A DNA stretch of 64,000 bases from Bacteroidales bacterium (GTDB lineage: Bacteria; Bacteroidota; Bacteroidia; Bacteroidales; VadinHA17): the NCBI GenBank assembly GCA_034002885.1, contig JAVEZS010000008.1:6001-70000 (forward strand). Reading direction: 5' to 3'. The position numbers were made by a program, and so were the translations under genes. Under the pieces are notes generated by a model. That model had not been told where the DNA came from and made no database searches. It saw only the letters and a list, made by a program, of their open reading frames with translations. Positions 1-53,545 of this stretch are shown here, piece after piece (position 1 is the first letter of the stretch; each line of letters begins with the position of its first letter).

Positions 1-1426
1 TGCGGTTCCCATATCCTCAATGGTGAAGGAAGCCCTTAAGGATTTCGGTCTTGATCCAAAGTCGGTACTGCGTACAAAGAATATGTTCGCACTTGGAATG
101 GTTTACTGGCTCTTCGACCGCAAGCTGAAATATACCCTACAGTATTTTGAGAAGAAATTTGCAAAAAAGCCCGAGATGATAAAGGCAAACACCATTGCCC
201 TGAGGGCTGGTTACTTTTATGCCGAGACAATCGAGGCGCTTGCACCGGTTATTAAAATAAATCCTGCACCTATTGCCAGGGGAAAATACAGAAGTATTTG
301 CGGAAATGTGGCAACTGCATGGGGACTAATGGCTGCAGCAGAGAAAGCAGGAATGAAACTCTTTCTCGGATCATATCCCATAACTCCTGCATCCGGAATT
401 CTTGAAGAGCTGGCCCTTCACAGGAATCTCCACGTGAAAAGCTTTCAGGCCGAGGATGAAATAGCCGGCATATGTTCCGCTCTGGGTGCAAGTTTCGCAG
501 GAAACCTTGCTGCAACATCAACATCAGGGCCCGGACTGGCTCTGAAATCAGAGGCGATCGGGCTTGCGGTGATGGCAGAACTGCCTCTGGTAATTATTGA
601 TGTCCAGAGAGGAGGACCTTCAACAGGACTTCCTACAAAAACCGAACAATCGGACCTTCTTCAGGCTCTTTTCGGAAGAAACGGGGAATGCCCGGTGGTA
701 GTGCTTGCGCCTACAACGCCATCCGACTGCTTTCGCTTTGCATTTGAAGCAGCCAGGATAGCACTCGAGCATATGACTCCTGTTATCCTTCTTACCGACG
801 GATACCTGGCTAACGGCACCGAACCCTGGAGAATCCCAGAAATGAAGGACCTGCCTGCAATAAATCCTCCTTTTGCCAAAGCTGACGAACAACCTTATTT
901 CCCGTATATGAGGGATTGTGAAAACTTTGTCAGGTCGTGGGCTATTCCGGGAACACCCGGACTGGAACACAGAATAGGAGGATTGGAAAAAACGATAAAG
1001 GGGACGGTATCTTATATACCAGAGAACCATGAGCTTATGGTTCATAACAGGGAAAACAAGGTGGCCAGGGTGGTCTCCAAAGTCCCCGATATAAAGGTTA
1101 GCGGTGCTGACTCGGGAGATCTTCTTGTTGTGGGGTGGGGTGGATCGTACGGATACCGCGTTGTGGCCGTACAGGAACTCCAGGCTGAGGGCTACAAGGT
1201 AAGCAATGTGACTTTCAATTATCTGAATCCCCTGCCTGAAAATGTCGCTGAGGTGTTCAGCAGATTTAAAAAGATAGTGGTGTGTGAACTTAACCTGGGT
1301 CAGTTCGCGAGTTATCTGCGTATGAAATTCCCCGAATTCAAATATGAGCAGATCAACAAGGTTCAGGGTCTGCCGTTCACGGTTAAGGAGATAAAGGACC
1401 AGTGTAAGGAAATTCTTGAAAGGTAA
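1..1426 (+). CDS. korA: 2-oxoglutarate/2-oxoacid:ferredoxin oxidoreductase alpha subunit (5' end cut by window edge)
   Basis: The frame is open from position 2 with no stop, so the gene begins upstream of the window. OFOR alpha-type motifs are present (GSYPITPAS, EDEIAG, QRGGPSTGLPTKTEQSDL). It is directly followed by the TPP-binding beta subunit. Confidence 0.85.
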   Translation, partial: AVPISSMVKEALKDFGLDPKSVLRTKNMFALGMVYWLFDRKLKYTLQYFEKKFAKKPEMIKANTIALRAGYFYAETIEALAPVIKINPAPIARGKYRSICGNVATAWGLMAAAEKAGMKLFLGSYPITPASGILEELALHRNLHVKSFQAEDEIAGICSALGASFAGNLAATSTSGPGLALKSEAIGLAVMAELPLVIIDVQRGGPSTGLPTKTEQSDLLQALFGRNGECPVVVLAPTTPSDCFRFAFEAARIALEHMTPVILLTDGYLANGTEPWRIPEMKDLPAINPPFAKADEQPYFPYMRDCENFVRSWAIPGTPGLEHRIGGLEKTIKGTVSYIPENHELMVHNRENKVARVVSKVPDIKVSGADSGDLLVVGWGGSYGYRVVAVQELQAEGYKVSNVTFNYLNPLPENVAEVFSRFKKIVVCELNLGQFASYLRMKFPEFKYEQINKVQGLPFTVKEIKDQCKEILER

Positions 1427-1430
1427 AGAT

Positions 1431-2453
1431 ATGGCTGAATCAGAAACAAATCAGTTAACGCCGAAAGACTTTAAAAGCGACCAGGAGGTGCGCTGGTGCC
1501 CCGGCTGCGGCGACCATGCCGTTCTGAACGCTGTGCAGAAAGCTCTTGCGGAGCTTGGTATCCCCAGAGAAAAGTACGCATTCATTTCTGGAATAGGATG
1601 CTCTTCACGCTTCCCTTACTATATGAATACCTACGGATTTCACAGCATTCACGGAAGAGCCTCTGCAATTGCAAGCGGAGTGAAAATTGCCAACCCGGAA
1701 CTTTCTGTCTGGCAGATTACTGGCGACGGCGATGCCCTGGCTATAGGAGGTAATCATTTCATTCATGCAGTAAGACGTAACATCGACATCAACATACTGC
1801 TTTTTAATAATGAAATCTATGGCCTCACAAAAGGGCAGTATTCACCAACATCCGAGAGAGGCCTCGTTACTAAAACATCCCCCTACGGAACGATAGAAGA
1901 ACCTTTTTCAGTTGGCGAGCTTGTAATAGGTGCAAAAGGAAAATTTTTTGCCCGGACCATCGACTCAAATGTTCCGCTCTCAACACAGGTTTATATCGAG
2001 GCGGCCCGTCATAAGGGTACTTCAGTAGTTGAAATACTCCAGAACTGTGTTATCTTCAACGACGGTATACATGATAAAGTATCAGGCAGGGAAGTTCGTG
2101 ACGAGCGTACCATTATCCTCAGACATGGCCAACCGATGGTTTTCGGGAAGAATGAAGACAAGGGACTGATCCTCGACGGACTGAAACTCAGGGTTGTTAA
2201 CCTCGGTGAAAACGGATACACAATAGAAAGTATTCTTGTTCATGATGCCACGGAACCCAATCCCGGTATCCATTATATGCTGGCGAACATGAGATATCCC
2301 GATTACCCGGTCGCACTTGGGGTGATAAGGGCAGTGGAGGGAGTGACTTATGAAGACGAACTTGGCAGGCAGATTGAAACGATCAGCAAATCGTCAGCCG
2401 TAAAATGCATGGATGATCTTATGAACAGCGGTTCGGTCTGGACCGTTGATTAG
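1431..2453 (+). CDS. korB: 2-oxoglutarate/2-oxoacid:ferredoxin oxidoreductase beta subunit (TPP-binding)
   Basis: RWCPGCGDHAVL and GDGDALAIGGNH motifs typical of OFOR beta subunits. ATG 1431 lies 4 nt after the korA stop. The track start at 1416 is a TTG. Confidence 0.88.
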   Translation: MAESETNQLTPKDFKSDQEVRWCPGCGDHAVLNAVQKALAELGIPREKYAFISGIGCSSRFPYYMNTYGFHSIHGRASAIASGVKIANPELSVWQITGDGDALAIGGNHFIHAVRRNIDINILLFNNEIYGLTKGQYSPTSERGLVTKTSPYGTIEEPFSVGELVIGAKGKFFARTIDSNVPLSTQVYIEAARHKGTSVVEILQNCVIFNDGIHDKVSGREVRDERTIILRHGQPMVFGKNEDKGLILDGLKLRVVNLGENGYTIESILVHDATEPNPGIHYMLANMRYPDYPVALGVIRAVEGVTYEDELGRQIETISKSSAVKCMDDLMNSGSVWTVD

Positions 2454-2547
2454 TACTTTTATATATACCTCCGGCTGATCCGATTCACCGTTGGCACCAC
2501 GGGGAAGATAAAGGAATTTTAGTAATTTTAAATCCTGCTTTTTCCCC

Positions 2548-5500
2548 ATGGACTCAAAAAAACATATTACCCCCGAATTCCACCGCCTCCTTCATGAGCA
2601 GAGAGAAAGACTGAAGGAGCTTGGTTGCATCAACCAGACAACTTATATCCTTAAGGAAAACAAGCCTGTGGAGGAAACACTCCAGCAGATTGTGCTTCTT
2701 CTTCCTGATGCATGGCAATACCCGGAATACACTGTAGCAAGGATAACCTTCATGCAGAATGAGTTCGAATCGCTCGACTTTCAGGAAACGAAATGGGAAA
2801 TGGCTCAGGAATTCAATACTATCGATGAAGAAAAAGGTACTATTGAGATCTTCTATACAAAAGAATTCAGGGAGGAATATGAGGGACCTTTTCTGAAGGA
2901 AGAAAGAGATCTTATCGAAAATATTGCCAGCCTTATAACAGGATACATCAACAGCTACAAAGCCCGCGACCTTTTCAGAAAGTCAGCGCTTCCCTTAAAG
3001 GAAGAGGAGGATCCCAAGACTATTTCAAGCAAAAAGCTTCTTCAGAGATTTCTGGACCGGCACAATGCAGAACGTGACATTTTCCACGATCTTCAGCCCT
3101 TCAAGGTAAAGGAGATACTCCTGGTGGCAAATCTTTACGACGCCTACTCCATTGAGGGAGAGGGAAGATTTGCTGACCATATACTTGGAGAATACTACCA
3201 TATGAGCCTGACCACGATACCAAGGGTTACAGGGGTTTCGAGCGAGGAGGAAGCTTTTGTGAGGTTGAGAGCCAGGCATTACGACATGGTAATCATAATG
3301 ATGGGAGTCGATAAGGAAAGCCCGGTGGAAATGTGCCGGAAAATAAAAGACAAATATCCCTACCTTCCTGCATACCTTCTTCTGAACAACCCGTCCGATA
3401 TGGCTTATTTAAAGAAGCAGAAAGGCATGAAAGCTCCTTTTGACAACTATTTTGTCTGGACCGGAGAATCGAAGGTTTTCTTTGCAATGGTTTCCCTCCT
3501 CGAAGACAGGGTTAATGTGGAAAATGATACCCAGAAAGGACTGACAGGTGTTATACTGCTTGTCGAGGATTCAGCCGACTATTACTCAAGCTACCTCCCT
3601 ATGCTGTATAACCTCGTCATGGATCAGACAAAACACCTTATCGATGATGTTTCAACCGATGAACTATACAAGGTGTTGAAGCTGAGAGGGCGGCCGAAGA
3701 TCCTCCTGGCTGATAACTGGGAAAACGCAATAAATATCTTTGATAACTACAGGAATAATATCCTGTGTGTCATCTCAGACATGAGCTTCCCCCGTAACAG
3801 CGAGATGAGCGAGCTTGCAGGATACGAACTGATAAAGCACATTAAAACCCACCTTCCCAATCTTCCGACAGTACTGCAATCCTCGGATCCCGATAATGCA
3901 AAGTACGCATTTAGTCTCAAGTCAAATTTTATTAACAAGAACTCTGAATCCCTCCTTCAGGACCTTAAATCTTTTATCAATTATTATCTCGGGTTTGGTC
4001 ATTTCGTTTACAGGGACAACCACGGCCGCCAGATTGCTGTTGCCCGGTCGATGAAAGAGTTTGAGGCTTACCTCGAGACCATACCTGAAGATTCCCTTGC
4101 CTATCACGCGATGAAGAATCACTTCAGTCACTGGCTGATGGCCAGGGGAGAAGTGAAAATAGCAAGACTGATAAACCCACTCAGGGTTTCCGACTTCGAA
4201 AGCCTGTCGGAGCTGAGGGAATTCCTTCTGAAAATCATAAGAAAGAGACGACAGGAACTCAACAAGGGAAGAGTAATAAATTTTGAGGAATCGGCTGCAA
4301 TCGATGAGACGAACGTTGTAAGCATGTCACCAGGCTCGCTTGGGGGAAAAGGACGCGGACTCGCTTTCGTAAATACCCTGATATACAGCTTTGAACTTGG
4401 CCGACTCATCAATGGCATAAACATCAAGGCACCCATTACTGTTGTGATCGGAACAGATGAATTCGACATGTTCATGGAAAGAAATCATCTCTGGAATCTT
4501 GTCAGGGATGAAAAGGACTTCGGTGAGGTACAAAAGGCTTTCCTTAAGGGTTCACTGAGTTATACTCTTGAGAAAAAGCTCCGGATTTTCCTGTCAAAGA
4601 TCACAAAGCCACTTGCGGTAAGATCTTCCAGCCTTTATGAGGATTCAATGAGTCAGCCATTTTCAGGGATATTCGGAACATGGCTCGTGCCTAACAACGA
4701 CCCTGAAAGGGATGTAAGGCTCCGTCAGCTTTCCGATGCTGTCAAACTTGTCTTCTCATCAATCTTTTCGGAGAACGCACGCTCCTATTTTGAAGCAATA
4801 AGCTATAAAATTGAACTTGAGAAAATGGCTGTGGTTATCCAGGAGGTCGTCGGTAACCGTTATGGCGATTTTTTTTACCCTCATGTCAGCGGGTCGGCCC
4901 AATCGTACAACTTTTATCCTGTTGCCCATATGAAACCGGGTGACGGTTTTGCAGTAGCAGCCCTCGGCCTTGGTCAGTACGTTATGGACGGAAACCTGGC
5001 CTACCGGTTCTCTCCGGCTTATCCGGCTCTTGAAATAATCTCCCAGAAAGATCTTTACAAGAATTCACAGGTTAGATTCTATGCTGTCGACCTTGCAAAA
5101 AAGGACCTTAACCTGCTTGAGGGTGAGAATGCCGGCCTCAGGATGCTTGATATCAGTGTTGCCGAAAGCCATGGAACCCTGGCACATATCGCTTCAGTTC
5201 TCAATCGTGAAAATGATACAATTATTCCGGGACTTGATGCAACCGGACCAAGGGTTATTAACTTCGCCGACATACTGAAGTACAACTATATCCCGCTGGC
5301 TCAGGCGATAAAGACAGTGCTGGATGTGGTCTCGGAGGCCTGTGGCACTCCAGTCGAAATCGAATTCGCAGTTGATCTCAGCAAGGATGCATCGGGAAAT
5401 GCTTCATTCTATCTGCTTCAGATAAAACCCCTTCACGGAACCGGCGCAGGTCACAATATCGATCCTTCAACTGTCGATCAGGACGAAGCGATATTGATAA

Positions 5501-6018
5501 CCAGCGAAAGCATGGGCAACGGAGTTGTTAACGATATTACTGATATAGTGTATATCGAACCTGACGAATTTGATAAAAACCTTACTATTGAAATGGCTGC
5601 GGAAATCTCATCAGTAAATGAAAAAATGGTAAAGGAAAACCGGAAGTATATTCTCGTCGGACCGGGAAGATGGGGTACCCGCGACAGATTCCTCGGGATC
5701 CCGGTTGCATGGCCCCAGATATCAAATGCAAAGGTTATTGTCGAAGTCTCTCTTCCCGACTTTCATGCAGATGCTTCACTTGGTTCGCATTTTTTTCACA
5801 ATATAACCTCTATGAATATAGGGTACTTTTCAGTCCGCCAGCATGGCACAACCGACGGCAGGAATATGATAAAATGGGAAAGCATAAGATCACAGAACAT
5901 ACAGAACAGGGGCAGATTCTACAGGCACGTCAGGTTTACTGACCCCCTTCTTGTGCGCATGGATGGCAAAAAGGGAATGGCAGTAATATCCATTAATCCA
6001 AAACAGAACGACAAATGA
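2548..6018 (+). CDS. Multidomain signalling protein: N-terminal sensor-like module, receiver-like module, receiver module, PPDK_N-type ATP-grasp (PEP/pyruvate-binding domain family), conserved C-terminal module
   Basis: 1156-aa uninterrupted ORF with an ATG start. Motifs: ERLKELGC...WQYPE...GPFLKEE (sensor module); ILLVEDS...CVISDMSFP...TVLQSS...FINK (receiver); GGKGRGLAF...AVRSSSLYEDS...PFSGIFGT (PPDK_N ATP-grasp); GPGRWGTRD...LGIPVAWPQIS...GSHFFHN (C-terminal module). Confidence 0.8.
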   Translation: MDSKKHITPEFHRLLHEQRERLKELGCINQTTYILKENKPVEETLQQIVLLLPDAWQYPEYTVARITFMQNEFESLDFQETKWEMAQEFNTIDEEKGTIEIFYTKEFREEYEGPFLKEERDLIENIASLITGYINSYKARDLFRKSALPLKEEEDPKTISSKKLLQRFLDRHNAERDIFHDLQPFKVKEILLVANLYDAYSIEGEGRFADHILGEYYHMSLTTIPRVTGVSSEEEAFVRLRARHYDMVIIMMGVDKESPVEMCRKIKDKYPYLPAYLLLNNPSDMAYLKKQKGMKAPFDNYFVWTGESKVFFAMVSLLEDRVNVENDTQKGLTGVILLVEDSADYYSSYLPMLYNLVMDQTKHLIDDVSTDELYKVLKLRGRPKILLADNWENAINIFDNYRNNILCVISDMSFPRNSEMSELAGYELIKHIKTHLPNLPTVLQSSDPDNAKYAFSLKSNFINKNSESLLQDLKSFINYYLGFGHFVYRDNHGRQIAVARSMKEFEAYLETIPEDSLAYHAMKNHFSHWLMARGEVKIARLINPLRVSDFESLSELREFLLKIIRKRRQELNKGRVINFEESAAIDETNVVSMSPGSLGGKGRGLAFVNTLIYSFELGRLINGINIKAPITVVIGTDEFDMFMERNHLWNLVRDEKDFGEVQKAFLKGSLSYTLEKKLRIFLSKITKPLAVRSSSLYEDSMSQPFSGIFGTWLVPNNDPERDVRLRQLSDAVKLVFSSIFSENARSYFEAISYKIELEKMAVVIQEVVGNRYGDFFYPHVSGSAQSYNFYPVAHMKPGDGFAVAALGLGQYVMDGNLAYRFSPAYPALEIISQKDLYKNSQVRFYAVDLAKKDLNLLEGENAGLRMLDISVAESHGTLAHIASVLNRENDTIIPGLDATGPRVINFADILKYNYIPLAQAIKTVLDVVSEACGTPVEIEFAVDLSKDASGNASFYLLQIKPLHGTGAGHNIDPSTVDQDEAILITSESMGNGVVNDITDIVYIEPDEFDKNLTIEMAAEISSVNEKMVKENRKYILVGPGRWGTRDRFLGIPVAWPQISNAKVIVEVSLPDFHADASLGSHFFHNITSMNIGYFSVRQHGTTDGRNMIKWESIRSQNIQNRGRFYRHVRFTDPLLVRMDGKKGMAVISINPKQNDK

Positions 6019-9008
6019 GCATTATCGAAGGAATTCACGACCTCCAGAAATATGATTTCACAGATACTTCCTTTGACCTGCTGATGCAGAAGAGAATTCA
6101 CAAGGTCCTGATAATATGCAGTAATTATGATAATTATATGCTTGAGGAGGATGGAAGGATCGACGAGCAGATTTTTAATGAGTATGTCTCCCTGAACCTG
6201 AGGTATCCTCCTAATTTTGTTCAGACCGACAACGCTGAGGATGCTTTCAGAATTTTAAAGGAGAACAAGATAGATCTCGTCATATCGATGCTCAGCCTCA
6301 GGGGAACAGATGTTTTTGCTCTGGCAAAAATGATAAAGGCAAGATATGAGCACATACCGATTGTTGTCCTTACTTACTTCTCAAGAGAGGTCTCACTTCG
6401 TCTTGAAGGAGAGGACCTGAGCGCTATAGATTATGTCTTTTGCTGGCTGGGCGATGCTTCTCTGATCCTGGCAATAATAAAACTCCTCGAAGACAAGATG
6501 AATGCCGACTTCGATATAGAGAATATAGGGGTTCAGGCAATAATCCTGGTTGAGAATTCTATAAGGTACATTTCTTCATATCTCCCGAATCTTTACAGGA
6601 TAGTGCTTCAGCAGTCGATCGATTTTCAGAGGGAAGCCCTCAACGAGCATCAGCGTATGCTAAAAATGAGAGGGCGACCGAAAATTTTGCTTGCTACAAA
6701 TTATAATGATGCACTCGAGCTTTACAAGAAGTATAAATACAATGTTCTCGGAGTAATCTCTGACATAAGTTACAAGAAGGACAATGTGGTTAATGAGAAC
6801 GCCGGGATAGCGCTTTGTCAGGCTGTAATGGCCGACGATGACAAGGTCCCTTTCCTGTTGCAGTCGTCAAGCCTCGTGCACAGGAAGATGGCTGAGGAGC
6901 TGGGAGCAGGGTTTATCTATAAATACTCAAAGAACCTGTCGCTCGAACTCAGGAATTTCATTATCCAGAACCTTGCTTTCGGGCCTTTTGTCTTCAAGAA
7001 CCCCGATACCATGGAGCCCATAGCAATAGCCACAGACCTTCAGAGTCTTCAGCAGAAACTTCTTACAATACCGGATAAAACCCTTGAATATCATGCAACA
7101 AGAAATCATTTCTCAAAATGGCTCAATGCAAGAGCTCTTTTCCCTGTTGCACAGATGTTCAAGTATATAAGAAAAGAAGATTTCGATACCATGGACGAGA
7201 TGCGCCGCTTTCTTTATGTGGCCATCTCAAGTTTCCGGCTTGGAAAGGGGAGAGGAATAATCGCAAAATTCGATAAGTCGAGTTATGATGAGTACCAGAT
7301 TTTTTCGAGGATAGGAGATGCTTCAATAGGAGGAAAGGCAAGGGGTCTGGCCTTCATCAACAGGCTCATAAAGACACATAAGCTTTATAACAGATTTCCG
7401 GGGGTTCTCATAACAATACCCCGGACTGTGGTCCTTAGCACGGACATTTTCGATGAGTTTATGGATCACAATAACCTGTACTCGGTAGCACTTTCCGATC
7501 TTCCGGATGAGGAGATACTGAACCGTTTTCTTGCAGCTGAGCTTCCTGCAAGGGTTTATCAGGATTTCCAGGCTTTCCTGGCTGTTTCCCGGAACCATCC
7601 CCTTGCAGTCAGATCGTCAAGTAAGCTTGAGGACTCGCACTACCAGCCCTTCGCAGGAATCTATTCAACCTACATGATCCCGAGGCATCCGGATAACAGG
7701 AATATGGTCAGGCTTATTTCGGATGCTATAAAGGAGGTTTACGCATCAGTTTATTACAGGGGAAGCAAAGCATACATGACTGCAACCGCGAACCTTATCG
7801 ACGAGGAAAAGATGGGAATAATAATTCAGGAGGTTTGCGGCAACCGGCATGGAGACATATTCTATCCCACCCTGTCAGGCGTCGCTCAGTCGATAAACTA
7901 TTACCCCATAGGATCAGAAAAAGCCGATGACGGAATAGCCAATATAGCCATAGGGCTCGGAAAGCTTATCGTTGAAGGAGGATTGTCGCTCAGATTCTCT
8001 CCCAGACACTCAAAAAAGATACTGCAGCTGTCGTCAGTCGAAAATGCCCTTCGGGATACTCAGAAAGAGTTCAGGGCTCTTGACCTCAGGGTCGAGCATT
8101 TTGTTCCATCAACCGACGATGGAGTAAATATCTTGCGAATGGGGATAAATGAGATTAATAACGACGCTGCAATGAAATACGCTGCGTCAACTTATGATTA
8201 TAACAACAATATTCTGCGTGACGGGATTAACCACCAGGGTAAGAGGCTAATTACCTTTGCCAATATTCTCCAGCATAACCTTTTCCCACTGGCGGACATA
8301 CTGTGCACTCTGCTCGATCTTGGACAAAAGGAGATGAATAATCCTATCGAAATAGAGTTTGCTGCAAATCTTGAAACGCCTCCCGGTGTCCCCAAAATTT
8401 TTAATTTTCTCCAGATAAGACCAGTAGTTCACTCCGAGGAGACCTCTGTGATCAACATTGGGAACATAAAACCTGAAGATGCAATAATTTATTCCGAATC
8501 GGCTCTTGGTAACGGAGTTTTCAAGGGAATACGCGATATTGTCTATGTTAAGCCAGAATCGTTCAATCCGGCAAGAAACAAGGAGATAGCCGGTGATATT
8601 GAGCAAATCAACAGCAGGTTTGTTGAAAGAGGGGAAAGTTATGTCCTTATCGGTCCGGGAAGATGGGGATCGACCGATCCATGGCTGGGAATACCTGTAA
8701 GATGGCCGCAGATATCGGCGGCAAGGATTATAATAGAATCTGGCCTTAAGAGCTACAGGATAGATCCGAGCCAGGGAACCCATTTTTTTCAGAACCTTAC
8801 CTCATTCAGAGTGGGTTATTTTACTATAAATCCTTTTATAAAGGAAGGATCGTACGATGTCGAGTACCTGAACAAGGCCGACGTTGCCTGGGAAGACGGG
8901 AACTTAAGGCATATCAGATTTGATAAACCACTGGAGATCATGGTCGACGGAAAAACCCACAAGGGGATAATCCTGAAACCTGTAGCCGAAAGCCGGGATG
9001 AGTCATGA
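6015..9008 (+). CDS. Paralog of the preceding gene: receiver-like module, receiver module, PPDK_N-type ATP-grasp, conserved C-terminal module (no N-terminal sensor module)
   Basis: 997-aa ORF whose ATG overlaps the upstream stop (ATGA at 6015-6018). It is colinear with the upstream protein. Motifs: ILVENS...GVISDISY...FLLQSS...FIYK; GGKARGLAF...AVRSSSKLEDS...PFAGIYST; GPGRWGSTD...LGIPVRWPQIS...GTHFFQN. Confidence 0.8.
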   Translation: MSIIEGIHDLQKYDFTDTSFDLLMQKRIHKVLIICSNYDNYMLEEDGRIDEQIFNEYVSLNLRYPPNFVQTDNAEDAFRILKENKIDLVISMLSLRGTDVFALAKMIKARYEHIPIVVLTYFSREVSLRLEGEDLSAIDYVFCWLGDASLILAIIKLLEDKMNADFDIENIGVQAIILVENSIRYISSYLPNLYRIVLQQSIDFQREALNEHQRMLKMRGRPKILLATNYNDALELYKKYKYNVLGVISDISYKKDNVVNENAGIALCQAVMADDDKVPFLLQSSSLVHRKMAEELGAGFIYKYSKNLSLELRNFIIQNLAFGPFVFKNPDTMEPIAIATDLQSLQQKLLTIPDKTLEYHATRNHFSKWLNARALFPVAQMFKYIRKEDFDTMDEMRRFLYVAISSFRLGKGRGIIAKFDKSSYDEYQIFSRIGDASIGGKARGLAFINRLIKTHKLYNRFPGVLITIPRTVVLSTDIFDEFMDHNNLYSVALSDLPDEEILNRFLAAELPARVYQDFQAFLAVSRNHPLAVRSSSKLEDSHYQPFAGIYSTYMIPRHPDNRNMVRLISDAIKEVYASVYYRGSKAYMTATANLIDEEKMGIIIQEVCGNRHGDIFYPTLSGVAQSINYYPIGSEKADDGIANIAIGLGKLIVEGGLSLRFSPRHSKKILQLSSVENALRDTQKEFRALDLRVEHFVPSTDDGVNILRMGINEINNDAAMKYAASTYDYNNNILRDGINHQGKRLITFANILQHNLFPLADILCTLLDLGQKEMNNPIEIEFAANLETPPGVPKIFNFLQIRPVVHSEETSVINIGNIKPEDAIIYSESALGNGVFKGIRDIVYVKPESFNPARNKEIAGDIEQINSRFVERGESYVLIGPGRWGSTDPWLGIPVRWPQISAARIIIESGLKSYRIDPSQGTHFFQNLTSFRVGYFTINPFIKEGSYDVEYLNKADVAWEDGNLRHIRFDKPLEIMVDGKTHKGIILKPVAESRDES

Positions 9009-9010
9009 AA

Positions 9011-9892
9011 TTAAAAAGCCGCAGAATCCGTTACTGTGTCCCTGCTTATTTTTTTTATTAGCCCCTGAAGGACCTTTCCCGGTCCGACTTCGGTAAACGA
9101 TGATGCACCATCAGCAATCATGTTCCTTATTGTCTGAGTCCATCTGACAGGAGATGTCAGCTGGGCAACCAGATTTGCCTTGATCGCGTCAGGATCCGTA
9201 GATGGCATAGCATTGACATTCTGATATATACGACAGATGGGCTTGTGAAAAGCGGTGTTCCGTATAGCTTCTTCAAGCTCAATCCTGGCTGGTTCCATCA
9301 GTGGAGAATGAAATGCTCCTCCCACAGCCAATGTCACAGCCATTTTTGCACCCCTGCCTTTCAGAATATCCACAGCAATGGTAACTCCTTCTACTGAACC
9401 GGAGATCACTATCTGGCCCGGACTGTTATAATTTGCCGGTACCACCACACCGCTTATCCCTGAGCAGACCTCCTCTACCACAGAATCATCGAGACCTATT
9501 ATTGCTGCCATGGTTGACGGAGAAGACTCGCAGGCTTTTTGCATGGCAGCTGCCCTCTTTGAGACCAGCAACAGACCATCTTCAAAGGAAATAGCCTTAC
9601 AGGCGACCAGTGCTGAAAACTCGCCCAGAGAATGGCCTGCGACCATTTCAGGTTTTATGGATCCTTCCAGAACCGAGGCAAGTATTGCAGAGTGGAGAAA
9701 AACTGCCGGCTGGGTTACCTTTGTCTGTTTCAGATCTTCATCGGTTCCGGTGAACATCAGGTCGGTTACCCTGAATCCAAGAATTTCATCCGCTCTGTCA
9801 AATAAATCCTTTGCAACCGCTGATCTTTCATAAAGATCCCTGCCCATACCTGTAAACTGCGCACCCTGACCCGGGAAAACATATGCTCTCAT
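9011..9892 (-). CDS. fabD: Malonyl-CoA:ACP transacylase
   Basis: N-terminus FPGQGAQFTGMG, active-site GHSLGEFSAL, 293 aa, typical FabD length. Confidence 0.92.
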   Translation of the reverse strand: MRAYVFPGQGAQFTGMGRDLYERSAVAKDLFDRADEILGFRVTDLMFTGTDEDLKQTKVTQPAVFLHSAILASVLEGSIKPEMVAGHSLGEFSALVACKAISFEDGLLLVSKRAAAMQKACESSPSTMAAIIGLDDSVVEEVCSGISGVVVPANYNSPGQIVISGSVEGVTIAVDILKGRGAKMAVTLAVGGAFHSPLMEPARIELEEAIRNTAFHKPICRIYQNVNAMPSTDPDAIKANLVAQLTSPVRWTQTIRNMIADGASSFTEVGPGKVLQGLIKKISRDTVTDSAAF

Positions 9893-23575: not shown

Positions 23576-25753
23576 GTGACAAACAATCAAATCGATGATA
23601 TGGATGTAGCTAAACTAAAATCCGGACACCGGCTGGTGAAGAGGTGGGAATATATCTGGACCCCTCTGAACAAGGGCTATACCGACAAGACTCTCTACAT
23701 CAATGTCGGATCAGCGGAAATCCGCGACAAGGATGTTCCACCGGTCATGAAGGAAAAGTTCATAGGAGGCAAGGGATACGGACTACGTCTTCTCTGGGAC
23801 GGAACAAGACCGGACACCCGCTGGAATGATCCCGACAATGAGATAATTATCTCATCAGGCCCCATTGGAGGAATTACTCAGTACTCCGGAACAGGCAAGT
23901 CGCTGGTGGTTAGTATTTCGCCTCAGACCGACTCAGTGATGGATAGCAATGTCGGAGGATTTTTCGGTCCCTTCCTGAAATTTTCAGGATTCGATGCCCT
24001 CGAAATTCAGGGTAAGGCTGAAAAAGATGTCATAGTCTTTATTGACGGGGTTAATCACTTTGTTGAGATCTTTGAAGCTCCTTATGAATCGGTTGACAGC
24101 CATCTTCTTGCTGAGGAACTGACCGAAATGTTCGCGGATAACGACAGCGATAAAAAGAATATAGGAGTGGTCTCATCAGGATCAGCTGCTGAGAATTCCC
24201 TTATCGGTATGCTTAATTTCAGCTTCTATGATCCCAAAAGGAAAAAGGTCAGACTGAAACAGGCAGGCCGGGGAGGAATTGGAACTGTCTTTCGTAATAA
24301 AAAAATCAAAGCCCTTGTTTGCAAGATCCCGGGAGTGAAGGGTAACCTCAACAATGTGGTAGACCTTGAAGCCATTATGGAAAGAGGCCGCCGCTTCAAC
24401 AGGGAGATGAGGGACCTGGATGACAAGCAATGCCAGATGAGGCAGACCGGTACCGCCCACCTTATGGAGATAATGAACGACCACGACCTGCTACCGGTAC
24501 ATAATTATAAGTTCGGCTCTCACCCCGATGCATATAAAATCGATTCAACTGTATGGAAAAGACACTTCACACAGAACATTCCCGATGGCTGCTGGATAGG
24601 TTGCAATATGTCGTGCAGCAAGGGAGTCGATGATTTTGAGATACAGACAGGCCCCTACAAAGGCCGTAAGGTCATTGTCGACGGCCCGGAATACGAAAAT
24701 GCTGCCGGACTTGGCGCAAATTGCGGAATTTTTGACCCCGGATATGTTATTGAAGCGAATTTCTACTGCGACACATACGGTATCTGCACAATAACCTGGA
24801 GTACCCTCTCTGCTTTTATAATGGAATGCTACGAAAACGGTATTCTGAACATTGAACGGACAGGGGGACTGGAACTTGAATTCGGCAACTCTGAGGCGGC
24901 TCTCGAATTGCTCCACCAGCTTGCCAGGGGAGAAGGTTTCGGGAAAACAGCCGGCCTCGGAGTAAGGAAAATGAAGCAAATGTTCATTGAAAAAGGATGG
25001 GGCAACCCTGACTTTCTCAATGATATCGGTATGGAAAACAAAGGACTTGAATATTCCCAGTATATGCCAAAGGAATCATTGGCACAACAGGGAGGATTCG
25101 CACTGACAAACAAGGGCCCCCAGCACGATGAAGCCTGGCTGATATTTATGGATATGGTTAATAACCAGATACCGACATTCGAGAACAAGGCTGAAGCCCT
25201 TCATTATTTTCCGATGTTCCGCACCTGGTTCGGCCTGGTTGGACTTTGTAAACTTCCATGGAATGATGTAGAACCTGAAAACAATGCTCAGACAGACGAA
25301 CCGGCAAAAGTGCCGGAGCATGTCGATAACTATGTGACCATTTACAAGGCGGTGACCGGAAGGGATTTCGATAAGAACAGACTTATTGAAGATTCCGAAC
25401 GCGTTTATAATTTCCAGAGGATTTTCAATATACGCAGGGGATTCGGTACGAGAAAATACGACCGCCAGCCTTACAGGGCAGCAGGCCCTGTAACAGCCGA
25501 GGAATACGAATCGAGGGCAGAACGATACGATAAACAGCTCAGGGAAAAAATCGGCGTTGATCCCGAAGGCAGAACTACAGCCGAAAAAATGAAGATACTG
25601 CGCAAATACAGGGAAGATCAGTATGAAAGCCTGGTCGATGCCGTCTATAAAAGAAGGGGATGGAACAGCAACGGCGTACCTACCCTTGGATTCCTGAAAA
25701 AGATCGGAATGGACCTTCCGGAGTTGATCGAGACCGTGAAGGACCTGCAGTAA
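23576..25753 (+). CDS. Aldehyde:ferredoxin oxidoreductase (AOR) family tungsto/molybdo-pterin enzyme, long form (725 aa)
   Basis: KFIGGKGYGLRLLW N-domain motif, Cys cluster CWIGCNMSC, later GLCKLPW, C-terminal YKRRGWNSNGVPT. GTG start at 23576; ATG alternative at 23600. Confidence 0.8.
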   Translation: MTNNQIDDMDVAKLKSGHRLVKRWEYIWTPLNKGYTDKTLYINVGSAEIRDKDVPPVMKEKFIGGKGYGLRLLWDGTRPDTRWNDPDNEIIISSGPIGGITQYSGTGKSLVVSISPQTDSVMDSNVGGFFGPFLKFSGFDALEIQGKAEKDVIVFIDGVNHFVEIFEAPYESVDSHLLAEELTEMFADNDSDKKNIGVVSSGSAAENSLIGMLNFSFYDPKRKKVRLKQAGRGGIGTVFRNKKIKALVCKIPGVKGNLNNVVDLEAIMERGRRFNREMRDLDDKQCQMRQTGTAHLMEIMNDHDLLPVHNYKFGSHPDAYKIDSTVWKRHFTQNIPDGCWIGCNMSCSKGVDDFEIQTGPYKGRKVIVDGPEYENAAGLGANCGIFDPGYVIEANFYCDTYGICTITWSTLSAFIMECYENGILNIERTGGLELEFGNSEAALELLHQLARGEGFGKTAGLGVRKMKQMFIEKGWGNPDFLNDIGMENKGLEYSQYMPKESLAQQGGFALTNKGPQHDEAWLIFMDMVNNQIPTFENKAEALHYFPMFRTWFGLVGLCKLPWNDVEPENNAQTDEPAKVPEHVDNYVTIYKAVTGRDFDKNRLIEDSERVYNFQRIFNIRRGFGTRKYDRQPYRAAGPVTAEEYESRAERYDKQLREKIGVDPEGRTTAEKMKILRKYREDQYESLVDAVYKRRGWNSNGVPTLGFLKKIGMDLPELIETVKDLQ

Positions 25754-30006: not shown

Positions 30007-31359
30007 ATGTCGAGAACTGTTAAGCTAAAAAAAGGATTTGATATCCGGTTGGAGGGAGTTGCCGAAAAAAAGCTTGCCGGAACTGTCAATCCGGTTCTTT
30101 ACGGAGTCAAACCGATCGATTTTCCCGGTCTTGTTCCAAAACTGGAAGTCAGCGCCGGAGATACAGTCGATGCAGGAACCCCTCTTTTTCACGACAAGCT
30201 GAGGCCGGCAGTCAAATTCACATCTCCGGTAAGCGGAAAAGTGATCTCTGTTAACAGGGGTGAACGCAGGCAGATACTGGAGGTTGTGGTTGAAAGCGAA
30301 GGAAACAGGTTCTGTCAATTCGGTAAGTCTGACCCTGTAAGCCTCACGGATGTCGTGATAAAAGAAAAGATCCTGCTATCGGGCCTCTGGCCGGCAATAC
30401 GGCAGAGACCGTATCATGTTGTCGCAAATCCCGACGACAGCCCGAAATCTATTTTTATTTCAGGTTTCGATACGGCACCGCTGGCTCCTGACTATAACTT
30501 CATTGTTGAGAATTCAAATGTTTCCTGGCTGAAGACCGGAATAAAGGCTCTTTCCAGGCTTACTACCGGCAAAATAAACCTTGCCCTGAAGGCAGGAATT
30601 GACGGAAACCACACCCTTGAAGCTCTTGATGGTGTCGTCGTGACATACTTTTCGGGCCCTCATCCTGCAGGAAATGTCGGGATTCAGGTCCATCATGTCG
30701 ATCCTGTCAACAAAGGCGAAACAGTCTGGTACATAAATCTACAGGATGTTGTTGCCCTGGGCCGTTTGTTTGAAGAAGGCGTTTACCGGCCTGAAAGGAT
30801 AATTGCTCTAACAGGTTCCGAGGTGATCGCTCCCCAATATTTCAGAATGATCTCCGGCGGATCTCTTAAACCTCTCGCCGATGGGAAAGTGAAGCAGGGA
30901 AAGCTGAGATACATCAGCGGGAATGTCCTTACAGGAAGAAGAACAGACCCTGGAGGATTTCTGGGATTCTACGATTCTCAGATCACCGTGATCCCGGAGG
31001 GCGACTATTCAGAATTCTTTGGGTGGGCAGTACCAGGAGCAGGGAAGTTAAGCTTCTCGCGTACCTTCCTGTCGTCACTTTTGCCTAAAAAAGTTTTCAG
31101 ACCCGATACCAACCTTCACGGCGGTGAAAGGGCATTCGTCGTGACAGGTCTTTATGAGAAGGTTGTGCCAATGGATATTTACCCCATGCATCTTTTCAAG
31201 GCTATTCTGGCCGAAGACATAGATCTGATGGAAAACCTCGGTATTTATGAAGTTGCAGAAGAAGACTTTGCGCTTTGTGAATTTATCTGCCCTTCAAAGA
31301 TAGAAATACAATCGATTGTCAGGAAGGGACTTGACCTGATGAGAAACGAAATGAGTTAG
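30007..31359 (+). CDS. nqrA: Na+-translocating NADH:quinone oxidoreductase subunit A
   Basis: 450 aa, N-terminus KLKKGFDIRLEGVAE, first gene of a colinear nqrABCDEF set. Confidence 0.92.
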   Translation: MSRTVKLKKGFDIRLEGVAEKKLAGTVNPVLYGVKPIDFPGLVPKLEVSAGDTVDAGTPLFHDKLRPAVKFTSPVSGKVISVNRGERRQILEVVVESEGNRFCQFGKSDPVSLTDVVIKEKILLSGLWPAIRQRPYHVVANPDDSPKSIFISGFDTAPLAPDYNFIVENSNVSWLKTGIKALSRLTTGKINLALKAGIDGNHTLEALDGVVVTYFSGPHPAGNVGIQVHHVDPVNKGETVWYINLQDVVALGRLFEEGVYRPERIIALTGSEVIAPQYFRMISGGSLKPLADGKVKQGKLRYISGNVLTGRRTDPGGFLGFYDSQITVIPEGDYSEFFGWAVPGAGKLSFSRTFLSSLLPKKVFRPDTNLHGGERAFVVTGLYEKVVPMDIYPMHLFKAILAEDIDLMENLGIYEVAEEDFALCEFICPSKIEIQSIVRKGLDLMRNEMS

Positions 31360-31382
31360 TAACCTCTGATTATTCAATAATA

Positions 31383-32558
31383 ATGAATTTCCTAAGAGAA
31401 AAGCTTGACAAGCTGAAACCTCAATTTACCAAGGGTGGTAAGTTTGAGAAATTACAGTCGGTGTTCGAAGGCTTCGAGACCTTCATGTTTGTTCCCGACA
31501 AGGTGACTTTCAAGGGCTCCCATATCAGAGATTCGATCGACATGAAAAGAACTATGACGGTCGTTATCATTGCCCTTATTCCTGCCCTTCTTTTCGGCTG
31601 TTATAATACAGGCCTTCAGCACTTCAGATCGACCGGCATGGAACCGGCCCTGCTACAGGCTGCCTGGTACGGTTTCCTTCGAATTCTTCCACTGATAATT
31701 GTAAGTTATGTTGTGGGACTCGGAATAGAATTTATCGCGGCACAGATAAGAGGACATGAGATAAATGAGGGATACCTTGTTACAGGGCTCCTGATACCGC
31801 TTATTATGCCTGTTGATGTACCACTTTGGATGCTTGCCCTCGCGGTCGCCTTCTCGGTTATTCTTGGGAAAGAGGTTTTCGGAGGAACCGGCATGAACAT
31901 TTTTAACCCGGCTCTTCTGGCCCGTGCCTTCCTTTTCTTCAGCTACCCGGGCTGGATGACAGGCGATATGGTGTGGACCGACGGACTTCTTGCCGGGAAA
32001 AACATTGTCGATGGTTTCTCGGGAGCAACTCCCCTCGCACTTTCCGCTGCCGGCGAGATATCCAGACTTCCTTCATTCATGGAAATGTTTATCGGAACAA
32101 TTCCCGGATCTATTGGTGAAACATCCACTTTGGCAATCCTGATAGGTGCTGCCATCCTTGTAATTACTGGGGTGGGAAGCTGGAAGATAATGCTGGGCGT
32201 TTTCGGCGGAGGCCTCTCAATGGGATTGCTTCTTAATGCATTATCCACAAATTCCTATATGGAGCTTCCTTTTTACTACCATTTTGTAATGGGAGGATTT
32301 GCCTTTGGAGCTGTCTTTATGGCCACTGATCCTGTTTCCGGCTCACAGACAGAGAAAGGCAAATGGATTTATGGTTTCCTGATAGGTGTTTTTTCAGTGA
32401 TTCTGAGGGTCCTTAATCCGGCATACCCCGAAGGCGTGATGCTTGCGATTCTGCTTATGAACGTATTTGCTCCGCTTATTGATTATTATGTAGTTCAGTC
32501 GAATATTAAGAGAAGACTGAAAAGAGCTAAAGTTGCACTTAATACCGGCGTAAAATGA
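31383..32558 (+). CDS. nqrB: Na+-translocating NADH:quinone oxidoreductase subunit B
   Basis: Polytopic membrane protein with the FMN-attachment region GFSGATPL and MATDPVSG; operon position. Confidence 0.92.
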   Translation: MNFLREKLDKLKPQFTKGGKFEKLQSVFEGFETFMFVPDKVTFKGSHIRDSIDMKRTMTVVIIALIPALLFGCYNTGLQHFRSTGMEPALLQAAWYGFLRILPLIIVSYVVGLGIEFIAAQIRGHEINEGYLVTGLLIPLIMPVDVPLWMLALAVAFSVILGKEVFGGTGMNIFNPALLARAFLFFSYPGWMTGDMVWTDGLLAGKNIVDGFSGATPLALSAAGEISRLPSFMEMFIGTIPGSIGETSTLAILIGAAILVITGVGSWKIMLGVFGGGLSMGLLLNALSTNSYMELPFYYHFVMGGFAFGAVFMATDPVSGSQTEKGKWIYGFLIGVFSVILRVLNPAYPEGVMLAILLMNVFAPLIDYYVVQSNIKRRLKRAKVALNTGVK

Positions 32559-33256
32559 AACACTTCAGTAACAGATATATCTTCATATTCTCGGCAATAA
32601 TGGTTGTTGTGGTGGCGACCCTTCTGTCGCTGGCCGCAACCCTTCTTCAGCCGGCCCAGGCGAAAAACCTTGAGATCGAAAAGAAGAGCAACATGCTCGA
32701 ATCGATAAACATTGAGGCAACTCCTGCAAATGCCGAAGAACTTTACAGTAAGTATATAAATGAAGGTTTTGTTCTAAACTCAAGTGGAGAACCAGTTGAA
32801 GGCGTAGACGCTTTTACAGTGGTGCTGAGGAACGAACAGAGAAAGAAACCCGAACAGCAGGCACTGCCTGTTTTCAGGGCAACGGCCGGTGATGGCGAGA
32901 ATTTGATAATAATCCCGGTCGAGGGGAAGGGACTCTGGGGACCTATTTTCGGTTATGTTTCCCTCAAATCGGATATGAACACCATCTACGGTGTTAATTT
33001 CGATCACAAGGGAGAAACTCCTGGACTTGGAGCGGAAATAAACACTTCGGATTTCGAAAGTCAGTTCAGAGGCAAGAAACTATTCGATGACAATGATTTC
33101 ATCTCCGTTCAGGTCGTCAAGGGTGGCGCCCGGGAAGGAGATATTCATGGTGTCGATGCAATTTCCGGTGGAACAATAACCAGCAAGGGTCTTGAGAAAA
33201 TGATCTTCGACTGCCTTAAAAAATATAACGGATACCTTCTAAAAAACAGAATCTAA
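32555..33256 (+). CDS. nqrC: Na+-translocating NADH:quinone oxidoreductase subunit C
   Basis: Single N-terminal TM and the FMN-binding motif GVDAISGGTITS; start overlaps the nqrB stop. Confidence 0.9.
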   Translation: MKHFSNRYIFIFSAIMVVVVATLLSLAATLLQPAQAKNLEIEKKSNMLESINIEATPANAEELYSKYINEGFVLNSSGEPVEGVDAFTVVLRNEQRKKPEQQALPVFRATAGDGENLIIIPVEGKGLWGPIFGYVSLKSDMNTIYGVNFDHKGETPGLGAEINTSDFESQFRGKKLFDDNDFISVQVVKGGAREGDIHGVDAISGGTITSKGLEKMIFDCLKKYNGYLLKNRI

Positions 33257-33259
33257 GAT

Positions 33260-33913
33260 ATGGACAACCAGGAAAAAGAGCCGATCTTCTCGGCCAAAAA
33301 CTTGAAGCTGCTGACCGGACCACTGGGAAAGAACAATCCAATTACTGTTCAGGTTCTCGGTATCTGCTCAGCATTGGCTGTTACAGTGAAACTTAAACCG
33401 GCATTTGTTATGGCCCTTTCAGTTACCATTGTTATAGCCGTTTCAAACGTTGTTATTGCAGCCCTCAGGAAGTATATCCCCGACAGAATAAGGATAATAG
33501 TACAGCTGGTTGTGATCGCAACCCTTGTTATCCTTGTCGACCAGGTTCTGAAAGCCTACCTTTTCGATGTGAGCAAGCAACTTTCGGTTTTTGTCGGACT
33601 TATAATAACAAACTGCATCATAATGGGAAGGCTCGAGGCATTTGCGCTCGCAAATAAACCATGGCCTTCATTTCTTGACGGACTCGGAAACGGAGCCGGA
33701 TACGGAATCATCCTTATCGTAGTGGCGTTCTTCAGAGAGTTGCTGGGATCCGGAACTATTTTCGGCTATCCTGTTCTTGAGAAACTGGGATTGTACAGTA
33801 CCGGCTATGAAAATAACGGAATGGTAATCCTTCCTCCCATGGCTCTGATTTTTGTCGGCCTGATAATATGGTTCCACAGGAGCCGCGACAAAAGCCTTGT
33901 TGAAAAACAATAA
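33260..33913 (+). CDS. nqrD: Na+-translocating NADH:quinone oxidoreductase subunit D
   Basis: 217-aa polytopic membrane protein ([18 protein letters not shown]; ITNCIIMGR). Confidence 0.9.
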
Positions 33914-33924
33914 TACAGGATACT

Positions 33925-34542
33925 ATGGAAAATCTTCTGAATATATTCGTAAAGTCAATTTTTGTCGAGAATATGATCTTCGCCTTTTTTCTGGGCATGT
34001 GTTCATATCTCGCTGTCTCTAAAACAGTAAAGACCTCGATGGGGCTGGGTATTGCGGTTATCTTCGTTCTTGTGATCACCGTTCCGGTTAACTTCCTTAT
34101 AGAGAAATATCTCCTAAAAAAAGGAGCCTTGATCTGGCTTGGTTCCGGCTTCGCCGATGTCGACCTGAGCTTTCTGACATTCATGGTATTTATCGCTGTT
34201 ATTGCCGCAATGGTTCAGCTTGTTGAAATGATTGTAGAGAAATTCAGTCCCGCTCTTTACAACTCACTTGGGATATTCCTTCCTCTGATAGCAGTTAACT
34301 GTGCCATTCTTGGTGCGTCTCTCTTCATGCAGGAAAGGGAGTACGCCAACCTTGCCGAAGCTGCCGTCTTCGGAGCAGGGTCAGGAGTGGGCTGGCTCCT
34401 GGCAATAGTCGGAATAGCTGCAATACGTGAAAAGATGAAATACAGCAATGTGCCCGATCCGCTGAAAGGACTGGGCATAACATTTATTCTGACAGGATTG
34501 ATGGCAATAGCTTTTATGGGATTCATGGGTATTCAACTCTAA
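33925..34542 (+). CDS. nqrE: Na+-translocating NADH:quinone oxidoreductase subunit E
   Basis: 205-aa polytopic membrane protein ([10 protein letters not shown]; IAVNCAILG). Confidence 0.9.
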
Positions 34543-34553
34543 GATAAATTATT

Positions 34554-35810: not shown

Positions 35811-35867
35811 GAAAACTCTCCATTTTCCCTGGCGGTCAGAATGGTACCGGTCGTGTTTGTATGAAAG

Positions 35868-41612: not shown

Positions 41613-41755
41613 GATACTATTAAACAAAACTGGGCAAAAATATTACATTATTCAATCGAAATACGTTTTATGCTTAATTATTTTATATATCATTTGGCAT
41701 GATTTTTATTTGTAAATATTAGAAATGTTTGGATTTGGTTTTTTATTTTTACAAT

Positions 41756-53543: not shown

Positions 53544-53545
53544 AG

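Follow-up and report, generated by a model that had tools for sequence, protein, structure and literature searches.

The stretch analysed here (the window) comprises 64,000 nt of a Bacteroidales bacterium (VadinHA17; assembly GCA_034002885.1, contig JAVEZS010000008.1, positions 6,001-70,000). It encodes two large proteins, designated A and B, which are best read as the two subunits of a conserved signalling enzyme from the lineage of pyruvate, phosphate dikinase (PPDK) and phosphoenolpyruvate (PEP) synthase (PEPS). Paralog A (1156 aa) is encoded at 2548..6018 and paralog B (997 aa) at 6015..9008, both on the plus strand. The two open reading frames (ORFs) overlap by the ATGA at 6015-6018, which contains the stop codon of A and the start codon of B. 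BLASTP aligns A 180-1147 with B 8-986 at 35% identity (995 columns, E = 0), and A possesses approximately 179 additional residues at its N terminus. A has 120 orthologs at 74-100% identity, and B has more than 8000 homologs. An initial annotation of this DNA had described the overlapping ORFs as colinear paralogs over about 970 aa, located 94 nt downstream of korAB. These descriptions hold, and the sequence motifs that it quoted are all found in A and B.

The korA-like gene (20..1426, plus strand; NCBIfam TIGR03710, 3e-160; Pfam POR_N) encodes the alpha subunit of a 2-oxoacid:acceptor oxidoreductase. Its 5' part is probably cut off by the start of the window, as the TIGR03710 match begins at model position 118 and the median korA ortholog at related loci is 614 aa long. 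The korB-like gene (1416..2453, plus strand; TIGR02177, PRK11866, Pfam TPP_enzyme_C) encodes the thiamine pyrophosphate (TPP)-binding beta subunit, and a 94-nt gap separates its end at 2453 from the start of A at 2548. The genes fabD and folE lie on the minus strand downstream of B. A scan of 2300-9300 placed no terminator in the gap from korB to A or at the A/B junction. The promoter and terminator counts in this region did not exceed the shuffled expectation, with a tool whose models do not cover Bacteroidota promoters.

Domain architecture of A and B

The ATP-grasp domain is of the PEPS/PPDK N-terminal type, as initially annotated. Pfam PPDK_N (PF01326, cut-off 27 bits) matches residues 597-969 of A (121.3 bits, 6.9e-35) and residues 437-812 of B (117 bits, 1.4e-33), encoded at 4336..5454 and 7323..8450 of the plus strand. 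An alignment of 51 diverse full-length homologs, 31-89% identical to B, was used to assess residue conservation. In hhalign, this alignment matches E. coli PpsA in the ATP-grasp region with 96% probability. The full-length AlphaFold2 model of B has a predicted local distance difference test (pLDDT) score of 87 and a predicted template modelling (pTM) score of 0.82. Its best PDB match by Foldseek is rifampin phosphotransferase (RPH; 5HV3, E 2.9e-10), with an alignment limited to the ATP-grasp (~412-422 columns).

The residues G439, G440, K441, R533, S534, S535, E539, D540, Q605, E781, and Q800 of B are kept in all 51 homologs, and E779 and R802 in 50 each. The catalytic positions of A, including K601, R692, E937, E939, and Q958, are those of the family, except that K960 stands in place of R802. 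In each subunit, the PPDK_N-type ATP-grasp is complete, with every residue for nucleotide and Mg binding in place.

The last ~185 residues of each protein form a conserved C-terminal module (C-module; residues 970-1156 of A, 5455..6015, and 813-997 of B, 8451..9005, plus strand), which the initial annotation had put at about 200 aa. A phmmer search of 1.84 billion representative proteins recovered 1727 clusters (50% identity) with the C-module, 432 of them at E ≤ 1e-30. In complete matching proteins, the module almost always follows PPDK_N. A further search with a C-module profile yielded mainly metagenomic fragments and added little. Among 141 aligned C-modules, R883, G892, S919, G921, and H923 (B numbering) are conserved without exception, and G882, W884, G885, P894, E908, F924, F925, and N927 are at least 97% conserved. 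The pattern is repeated in the full-length set, where the histidine is present in 51 of 51 homologs. This invariant histidine belongs to the motif PSQG[ST]HFFxN and corresponds to H923 in B (codon 8781-8783) and H1081 in A (codon 5788-5790). In the AlphaFold2 model of the C-module (pLDDT 93.4, pTM 0.90), it is located in the first turn of helix 112-120, following a parallel strand.

The C-module is not detectably related to the swivel domain that carries the phosphohistidine in PEPS and PPDK. Pfam returned nothing for C-modules even at E ≤ 10, and a profile of 22 C-modules found nothing relevant among all PDB sequences. A Foldseek search with the model gave no match at E ≤ 1e-3 in PDB or BFVD, the best query-normalised template modelling (TM) scores being 0.27 and 0.34, respectively. 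Neither PF00391 (PEP-utilizer swivel) nor PF02896 (TIM barrel) matched A or B in Pfam, both chains end ~185 aa past the ATP-grasp and have no TIM barrel, and no GG.TSHAA-like motif is present in the window or in 80 related loci. In hhalign, a swivel profile built from E. coli PpsA, PtsI, and 78 metagenomic PpsA sequences aligned with 45% probability. This match is confined to the final part of the ATP-grasp and the opening hairpin of the C-module (LGNG..I.DI versus IGxxIGxGxVxVI.DI) and stops before PpsA His421. The C-module alone scored below 1% against the swivel profile. A hidden swivel domain was rejected, as Pfam, the PDB profile, Foldseek, and hhalign all lacked a match over the histidine region. 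Two alignments made by eye (GTHFF onto TSHAA, and GPGRWG...LGIPV onto GGRTCH...LGIPA) were also considered, neither being preferable.

The initial annotation was right that a swivel-His motif and a TIM barrel are missing. Its statement that there is no recognisable His carrier fails, as the fully conserved histidine at the helix start of the C-module had been overlooked. By sequence and model, the canonical swivel domain is absent and its slot in PEPS/PPDK is taken by a domain with no detectable relative, which may be a swivel domain diverged beyond recognition or an unrelated fold. The invariant histidine is a natural candidate for the phospho-carrier, by analogy with the swivel histidine.

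This domain content refutes the reading of A and B as an ordinary PEP synthase or PPDK. Homologs bear these names in databases and NCBIfam PEPS models match weakly, but the matches reach 20-54 bits against cut-offs of 600-900 and involve the ATP-grasp only. The chain lacks the PEP-utilizer swivel domain and the TIM barrel and stops at the C-module, so that this reading is scarcely credible. The NCBIfam model for rifampin phosphotransferase (RIF_Ptrans_rph) has a cut-off of 999 bits, of which 15 are reached.

A direct kinase or ligase that works without a His relay is a more serious alternative, although an unlikely one. The substrate would be a small molecule such as a 2-oxoacid or glutamate, the C-module would serve as the substrate or catalytic domain, and the invariant His, Arg, Glu, and Ser would form the acceptor site. 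It is consistent with the lack of detectable swivel likeness, with the invariant polar residues R883, D888, E908, S919, H923, and N927 and a GxGRWG loop that could bind a ligand, with the occurrence of core-only proteins composed of the ATP-grasp and C-module (P0363 and a 587-aa protein at locus L172), and with the metabolic-gene neighbours. On the other hand, all characterised PPDK_N-type ATP-grasps transfer to a histidine (PMC4844700, PMC12167813, PMC13400623, and established knowledge). An invariant histidine at a helix N terminus is a hallmark of phospho-carriers, and the receiver, sensor, and nucleotidyltransferase additions of the family described below are found more typically in regulators than in pathway enzymes.

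Two receiver-like modules precede the catalytic part, and the model of B displays two beta-alpha receiver units. REC1 is encoded at 3100..3537 in A and, colinear with it, at 6087..6509 in B, where Pfam Response_reg matches residues 67-142 with 38 bits. A methionine occupies the phospho-acceptor Asp site in both proteins (M251 in A, M92 in B). Aligned to FleR, B REC1 has ISM opposite the ISD of FleR, and across the 51 homologs the position is occupied by M, T, F, or L. The conserved Lys is replaced by F-x-W-x-G. The lack of an acidic beta1 pair, initially noted for this module, is correct but incomplete, as the phospho-acceptor Asp and the Lys are missing as well, making REC1 a pseudo-receiver.

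REC2 retains the key positions, in agreement with the initial annotation. It is encoded at 3544..3957 in A (E340, D341, D411, S445, K464), where the Pfam Response_reg match on residues 372-452 falls under the cut-off with 24.7 bits. In B, it is encoded at 6531..6944 and contains E180, D250 (codon 6762-6764), S284, and K303, together with an extended helix 1. The key residues (E/D, Asp, Ser/Thr, Lys) are kept in 45-50 of the 51 homologs, including the acceptor Asp in 48, Ser/Thr in 49, and Lys in 47. The tandem receivers of B match PleD, 3LUF, and single REC domains in Foldseek with target-normalised TM scores of 0.7-0.79, and the PleD-type structures 1W25, 2V0N, and 9G85 are found at E ~1e-7. 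Since REC2 is intact, receiver control of the enzyme is plausible, and so is the proposal of the initial annotation that the ATP-grasp is signal-regulated through a two-component system.

The receivers could instead be part of a self-contained phosphorelay, in which a non-canonical histidine kinase passes its phosphoryl group from the histidine to the Asp of its own or its partner's REC2, with the receivers as outputs or intermediates. An invariant histidine and an intact REC2 Asp indeed occur on one chain, no histidine kinase gene adjoins the pair, and the mycobacterial protein VadK has been described as a PPDK-derived histidine kinase. Core-only proteins and first units of fused proteins, however, lack receivers and keep the catalytic motifs, which argues that the receiver is dispensable for the core chemistry. 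In addition, no output domain would follow the receiver, and N-terminal receivers are normally inputs, as in PleD, the best structural match. A phosphorelay of this kind is improbable.

The receivers are joined to the ATP-grasp by a segment that had been described as a helical linker. It is present in both proteins (YHAMKNHFSHWL in A, 3985..4317; YHATRNHFSKWL in B, 6972..7259), but the model of B adds a beta-hairpin to the helices, and the linker of A is DUF5752-like. Scanned alone, the A linker matches PF19027 with 30.8 bits (cut-off 23), yet over profile positions 20-107 of 208 only; the B linker reaches 13 bits. Precomputed annotations place PF19027 in many A orthologs. A literature search retrieved no paper mentioning DUF5752.

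The additional N-terminal residues of A contain a domain of about 125-150 aa (residues 3-153, 2554..3006, plus strand) that was missing from the initial description. The domain is characterised by the motifs L.ELGC, WQYPE, and EGPFL.EER.LI. All 120 A orthologs have it, and all 120 B orthologs lack it. It has no Pfam match, and a PDB sequence search with it was empty. It is 31-38% identical to the N termini of partner proteins in other phyla (E 1e-17 to 1e-20) and sits mid-chain in fused family members. Three tandem copies are found in a Chitinispirillaceae homolog (P0510, aa 4-397). In a haloarchaeal REC-PAS-GAF-HisKA-HATPase_c kinase (L181, 3001-3366), a domain of this type lies between REC and PAS (35% identity, E 5e-11). 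From these occurrences, it looks like an undescribed signalling or sensor module.

Conservation of the A/B pair

With each GTDB species represented by one genome, a scan yielded at least 593 coding stretches. The 80 best all derive from Bacteroidota-type metagenome-assembled genomes, and the locus counts refer to these 80. The order korA-korB-(0-4.6 kb)-A-B-fabD/folE is found in ~37 loci, and korAB is located upstream in ~41. A further clade contains the A-B tandem without korAB. B follows korAB without A in at least 3 loci, and more than 20 loci contain a lone B-type gene at 57-63% identity. In 50 Bacteroidales loci with both genes, the distance from the A stop to the B start is -4 (ATGA) in 5 and 1-21 nt in ~40.

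The coupling extends beyond the Bacteroidales. B-type and A-type genes overlap in three loci of other lineages (L171, with an 8-nt overlap, L172, and L175), and in L176 they are adjacent with a 69-nt gap. In P0257, P0262, and P0301, two units of ATP-grasp and C-module are fused in a single chain of 1523-1654 aa. In the distant pairs and fusions, the second unit always has the A-type N-terminal domain at its start and, in many cases, a Pol-beta nucleotidyltransferase (NTase) at its end, the G[SG]...DxD motif of which is intact. No catalytic motif is missing from either unit. The family extends over several phyla, on contigs of 30-73% GC.

Gene fusion and conserved coupling are good evidence that A and B cooperate, as judged from sequence. 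The initial suggestion of a heteromer is strongly supported by the tight spacing in ~45 of 50 loci and by the overlaps and fusions in other phyla. The expectation that the two genes co-occur in tandem holds for these ~45 loci among the 50 with both genes but not for the many genomes that have a single B-type gene. The distribution fits with single B-type proteins acting as homo-oligomers where A is absent. The pair itself is ancient.

Paired paralogs often include a degenerate partner, and A and/or B could be a catalytically dead scaffold. A carries K960 where the family has Arg, plus two substitutions beside the His motif. The invariant residues of the ATP-grasp and C-module are kept, however, in A, in B, and in both units of the distant pairs and fusions, which makes a pseudoenzyme very improbable.

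Several loci depart from the common arrangement. In L047 (7945-14380), the A and B orthologs are split into several frames, by possible pseudogenisation or long-read assembly errors. In L052 (9515-10456), A is reduced to an N-terminal remnant of ~310 aa before an intact B. A and B lie ~6 kb apart in L075 and L079 (300-9971). The insert encodes NuoE-like and NuoF-like proteins and a 2Fe2S/GltD-like/molybdopterin oxidoreductase of the formate-dehydrogenase or hydrogenase type, and a small ORF resembling the A N-terminal domain is located ahead of A.

Genomic association with glutamate dehydrogenase and korAB

Gene neighbours were inspected for 11 diverse family members, chosen blind to their context. 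An ELFV-family glutamate dehydrogenase (GDH) gene is located immediately upstream on the same strand in 8 of the 11 (P0301, P0257, P0262, P0518, P0269, P0349, P0344, and P0337), with gaps of 7-494 nt and on contigs of 30-73% GC. P0269 has two adjoining sets of gdh and module. P0516 and P0510 have no gdh neighbour, and the contigs of P0388 are too short to judge. In 6 Bacteroidales loci, gdhA lies directly downstream of B; it belongs to another subfamily, ~32% identical. Clustering of 957 ORFs neighbouring single-copy B in the Bacteroidales retrieved only this gdhA (6 loci) and a NuoE/NuoF/FdhA-like set (5 loci).

In the clade of the window, the neighbour is korAB, a 2-oxoacid:ferredoxin oxidoreductase. 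In Bacteroides, KorAB is known to supply 2-oxoglutarate for glutamate synthesis. The initial annotation took korAB as a hint of a link to 2-oxoacid or pyruvate metabolism. The 2-oxoacid part stands, but korAB is limited to one Bacteroidales clade, and the association with GDH is more general and stronger. Because the general partner is GDH, the metabolic link concerns 2-oxoglutarate and glutamate, not pyruvate. The family is tied to the 2-oxoglutarate/glutamate node.

At locus L172 (4418-15012), two gdh paralogs of 447 and 428 aa adjoin one another, and a separate module follows each. One gdh precedes a 1003-aa B-type protein, and the other precedes the 587-aa core-only protein, whose gene overlaps that of an A-type protein with an NTase. 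This suggests a dedicated module for each GDH isoenzyme at the locus. In L163 (4347-8058), the neighbours of a pair of gdh and fused protein include a hybrid histidine kinase with the order HisKA-HATPase_c-REC and an AMPylase of the SelO family, and the hybrid kinase is a possible cognate kinase.

The surroundings of A and B in the window include many redox and 2-oxoacid metabolism genes. Among them are an aldehyde:ferredoxin oxidoreductase (23576-25753), an apparent nqr operon with NqrA as the first gene (30007-36920), and a fused E1 alpha/beta 2-oxoacid dehydrogenase component (37425-39836). A 591-aa ORF on the minus strand (39852-41627) has no Pfam match at E ≤ 1e-5. PADLOC defence-system models gave no match for A or B, and an anti-phage defence system was ruled out on this ground. 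A sensor histidine kinase (sCache-like, HisKA, HATPase_c) and an adjacent 230-aa ORF, probably its response regulator, are encoded on the minus strand at 51783-54238. The kinase gene itself spans 51783-53543 and is the only one among the scanned ORFs of the window.

Proposed mechanism and relation to known systems

The explanation that we favour, tentatively and at slightly less than an even chance, is that A and B form a pair of autophosphorylating kinases, derived from PPDK and regulated by a receiver, that act on the 2-oxoglutarate/glutamate node. The ATP-grasp would phosphorylate or pyrophosphorylate a histidine on the C-module, H923 in B and H1081 in A, with the C-module acting as a positional substitute for the swivel domain of PEPS/PPDK. 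REC2 would be phosphorylated by a histidine kinase at D250 in B and D411 in A and, together with a signal sensed by the N-terminal domain of A, would gate the activity. The phosphoryl group would then pass to a target at the 2-oxoglutarate/glutamate node, the likeliest being GDH, KorAB, or a ligand of either. The role of the pair would thus be that of a kinase regulating a metabolic enzyme, in a manner like VadK. To our knowledge, every characterised PPDK_N-type ATP-grasp (PPDK, PEPS, RPH, GWD, HpeHI, and VadK) transfers to a histidine, and H923 and H1081 are for this reason the proposed phospho-acceptors.

Several observations weigh against this model. The likeness between the C-module and the swivel domain ends at the first hairpin, in both sequence and structure searches, and the proposed phospho-carrier role of the C-module histidine is consequently argued from its position, its conservation, and analogy. 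A and B have no histidine kinase gene beside them; the nearest HisKA/HATPase_c gene is the one at 51783-53543, ~45 kb away. No GDH gene is found within the 64-kb window, and many single-copy B loci have no conserved neighbour. GDH adjacency alone does not make GDH the substrate. Finally, the NTase of the partner proteins in other phyla is missing in A, and the chemistry may therefore differ between lineages.

A broader proposal, which we regard as doubtful, is that the family constitutes a widespread covalent-modification system, existing in split, fused, and NTase-bearing forms, that switches GDH, and possibly KorAB in the clade of the window, on or off upon two-component and other signals, through a new phosphohistidine carrier domain loaded by the PPDK-type ATP-grasp. 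If true, this covalent switch would be the GDH counterpart of the control of glutamine synthetase by GlnE. GlnE and GlnD are large two-unit nitrogen-status enzymes that covalently modify glutamine synthetase or PII at the glutamate/2-oxoglutarate node. By analogy, they resemble the family in the Pol-beta-type NTase of the partner proteins in other phyla. The sequence relation is confined to the NTase superfamily, however, and neither A nor B of the window contains an NTase domain.

The closest functional precedent is VadK (Rv1127c) of M. tuberculosis, a truncated PPDK that consists of an ATP-grasp and a swivel domain with His422, autophosphorylates, and binds enzymes of the methylcitrate cycle (PMC13400623). 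Like A and B, VadK retains the PPDK_N ATP-grasp and has lost the PEP/pyruvate TIM barrel, and it tunes central-metabolism enzymes instead of making PEP. Unlike them, it possesses a canonical swivel domain, and its ~490 aa form a single protein that lacks receivers, a sensor domain, and a paired paralog. In A and B, the histidine lies on a domain without detectable swivel likeness, and the genomic partner is GDH or KorAB.

RPH (5HV1-5HV3, PMC4844700) shares the ATP-grasp, for which it is the best structural match, but it is a small-molecule resistance enzyme without receivers, and it has a domain for rifampin binding and, at its C terminus, a canonical swivel His domain. The ATP-grasps of PEPS and PPDK are homologous to those of A and B, and the C-module sits where the swivel domain does, with the first hairpin colinear. 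The PF00391 swivel domain, the GG.TSHAA motif, and the PF02896 TIM barrel of these enzymes are all absent from A and B. HpeHI is a two-component small-molecule dikinase composed of HpeI, which contains the ATP-grasp, and HpeH, which contains the swivel and substrate domains (PMC12167813). It likewise distributes a PPDK_N-type system over two cooperating polypeptides. HpeI and HpeH complement each other as parts, whereas A and B are paralogs that each form a complete unit of ATP-grasp and C-module.

PleD-type regulators also place a tandem of receiver and pseudo-receiver upstream of an enzymatic output. Their output is GGDEF, and the domain order is reversed, the pseudo-receiver coming first in A and B. 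The products of a nitrate-resistance cluster of Desulfovibrio are a histidine kinase, a receiver protein that stands alone, a PPDK_N protein whose mobile domain is canonical, and a phosphatase of the Tyr/dual-specificity type (PMC4001038). The cluster represents a split-gene analogue of receiver-linked PPDK_N signalling. None of VadK, RPH, HpeHI, and PleD shares the C-module, the pairing of complete units, the control by receiver and sensor, or the GDH association. The literature search found no study of the A/B architecture or of a link between GDH and PPDK_N and no characterised ortholog of A or B, in keeping with the novelty of the architecture presumed in the initial annotation.

PPDK_N enzymes have long been seen as metabolic dikinases or drug kinases composed of an ATP-grasp, a swivel His domain, and a substrate domain. 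VadK (2025-26) indicated that this plan is reducible to a regulatory autokinase. The A/B family is far larger and mostly occurs as a pair, with the swivel domain replaced and the enzyme placed under putative receiver and sensor control. What is new in A and B is a PPDK_N-type phosphotransfer enzyme with one undescribed domain. Homologs are listed in databases as 'phosphoenolpyruvate synthase', 'pyruvate, phosphate dikinase', 'CheY-like chemotaxis protein', or 'PEP/pyruvate-binding domain-containing protein', names that are domain-level guesses. Recognition of the family would put right the annotation of thousands of proteins as 'phosphoenolpyruvate synthase' or 'CheY-like chemotaxis protein'. 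We know of few bacterial control mechanisms at the 2-oxoglutarate/glutamate junction, and the placement of the family beside GDH and korAB offers a testable hypothesis, namely that this junction may be under post-translational control in anaerobes.

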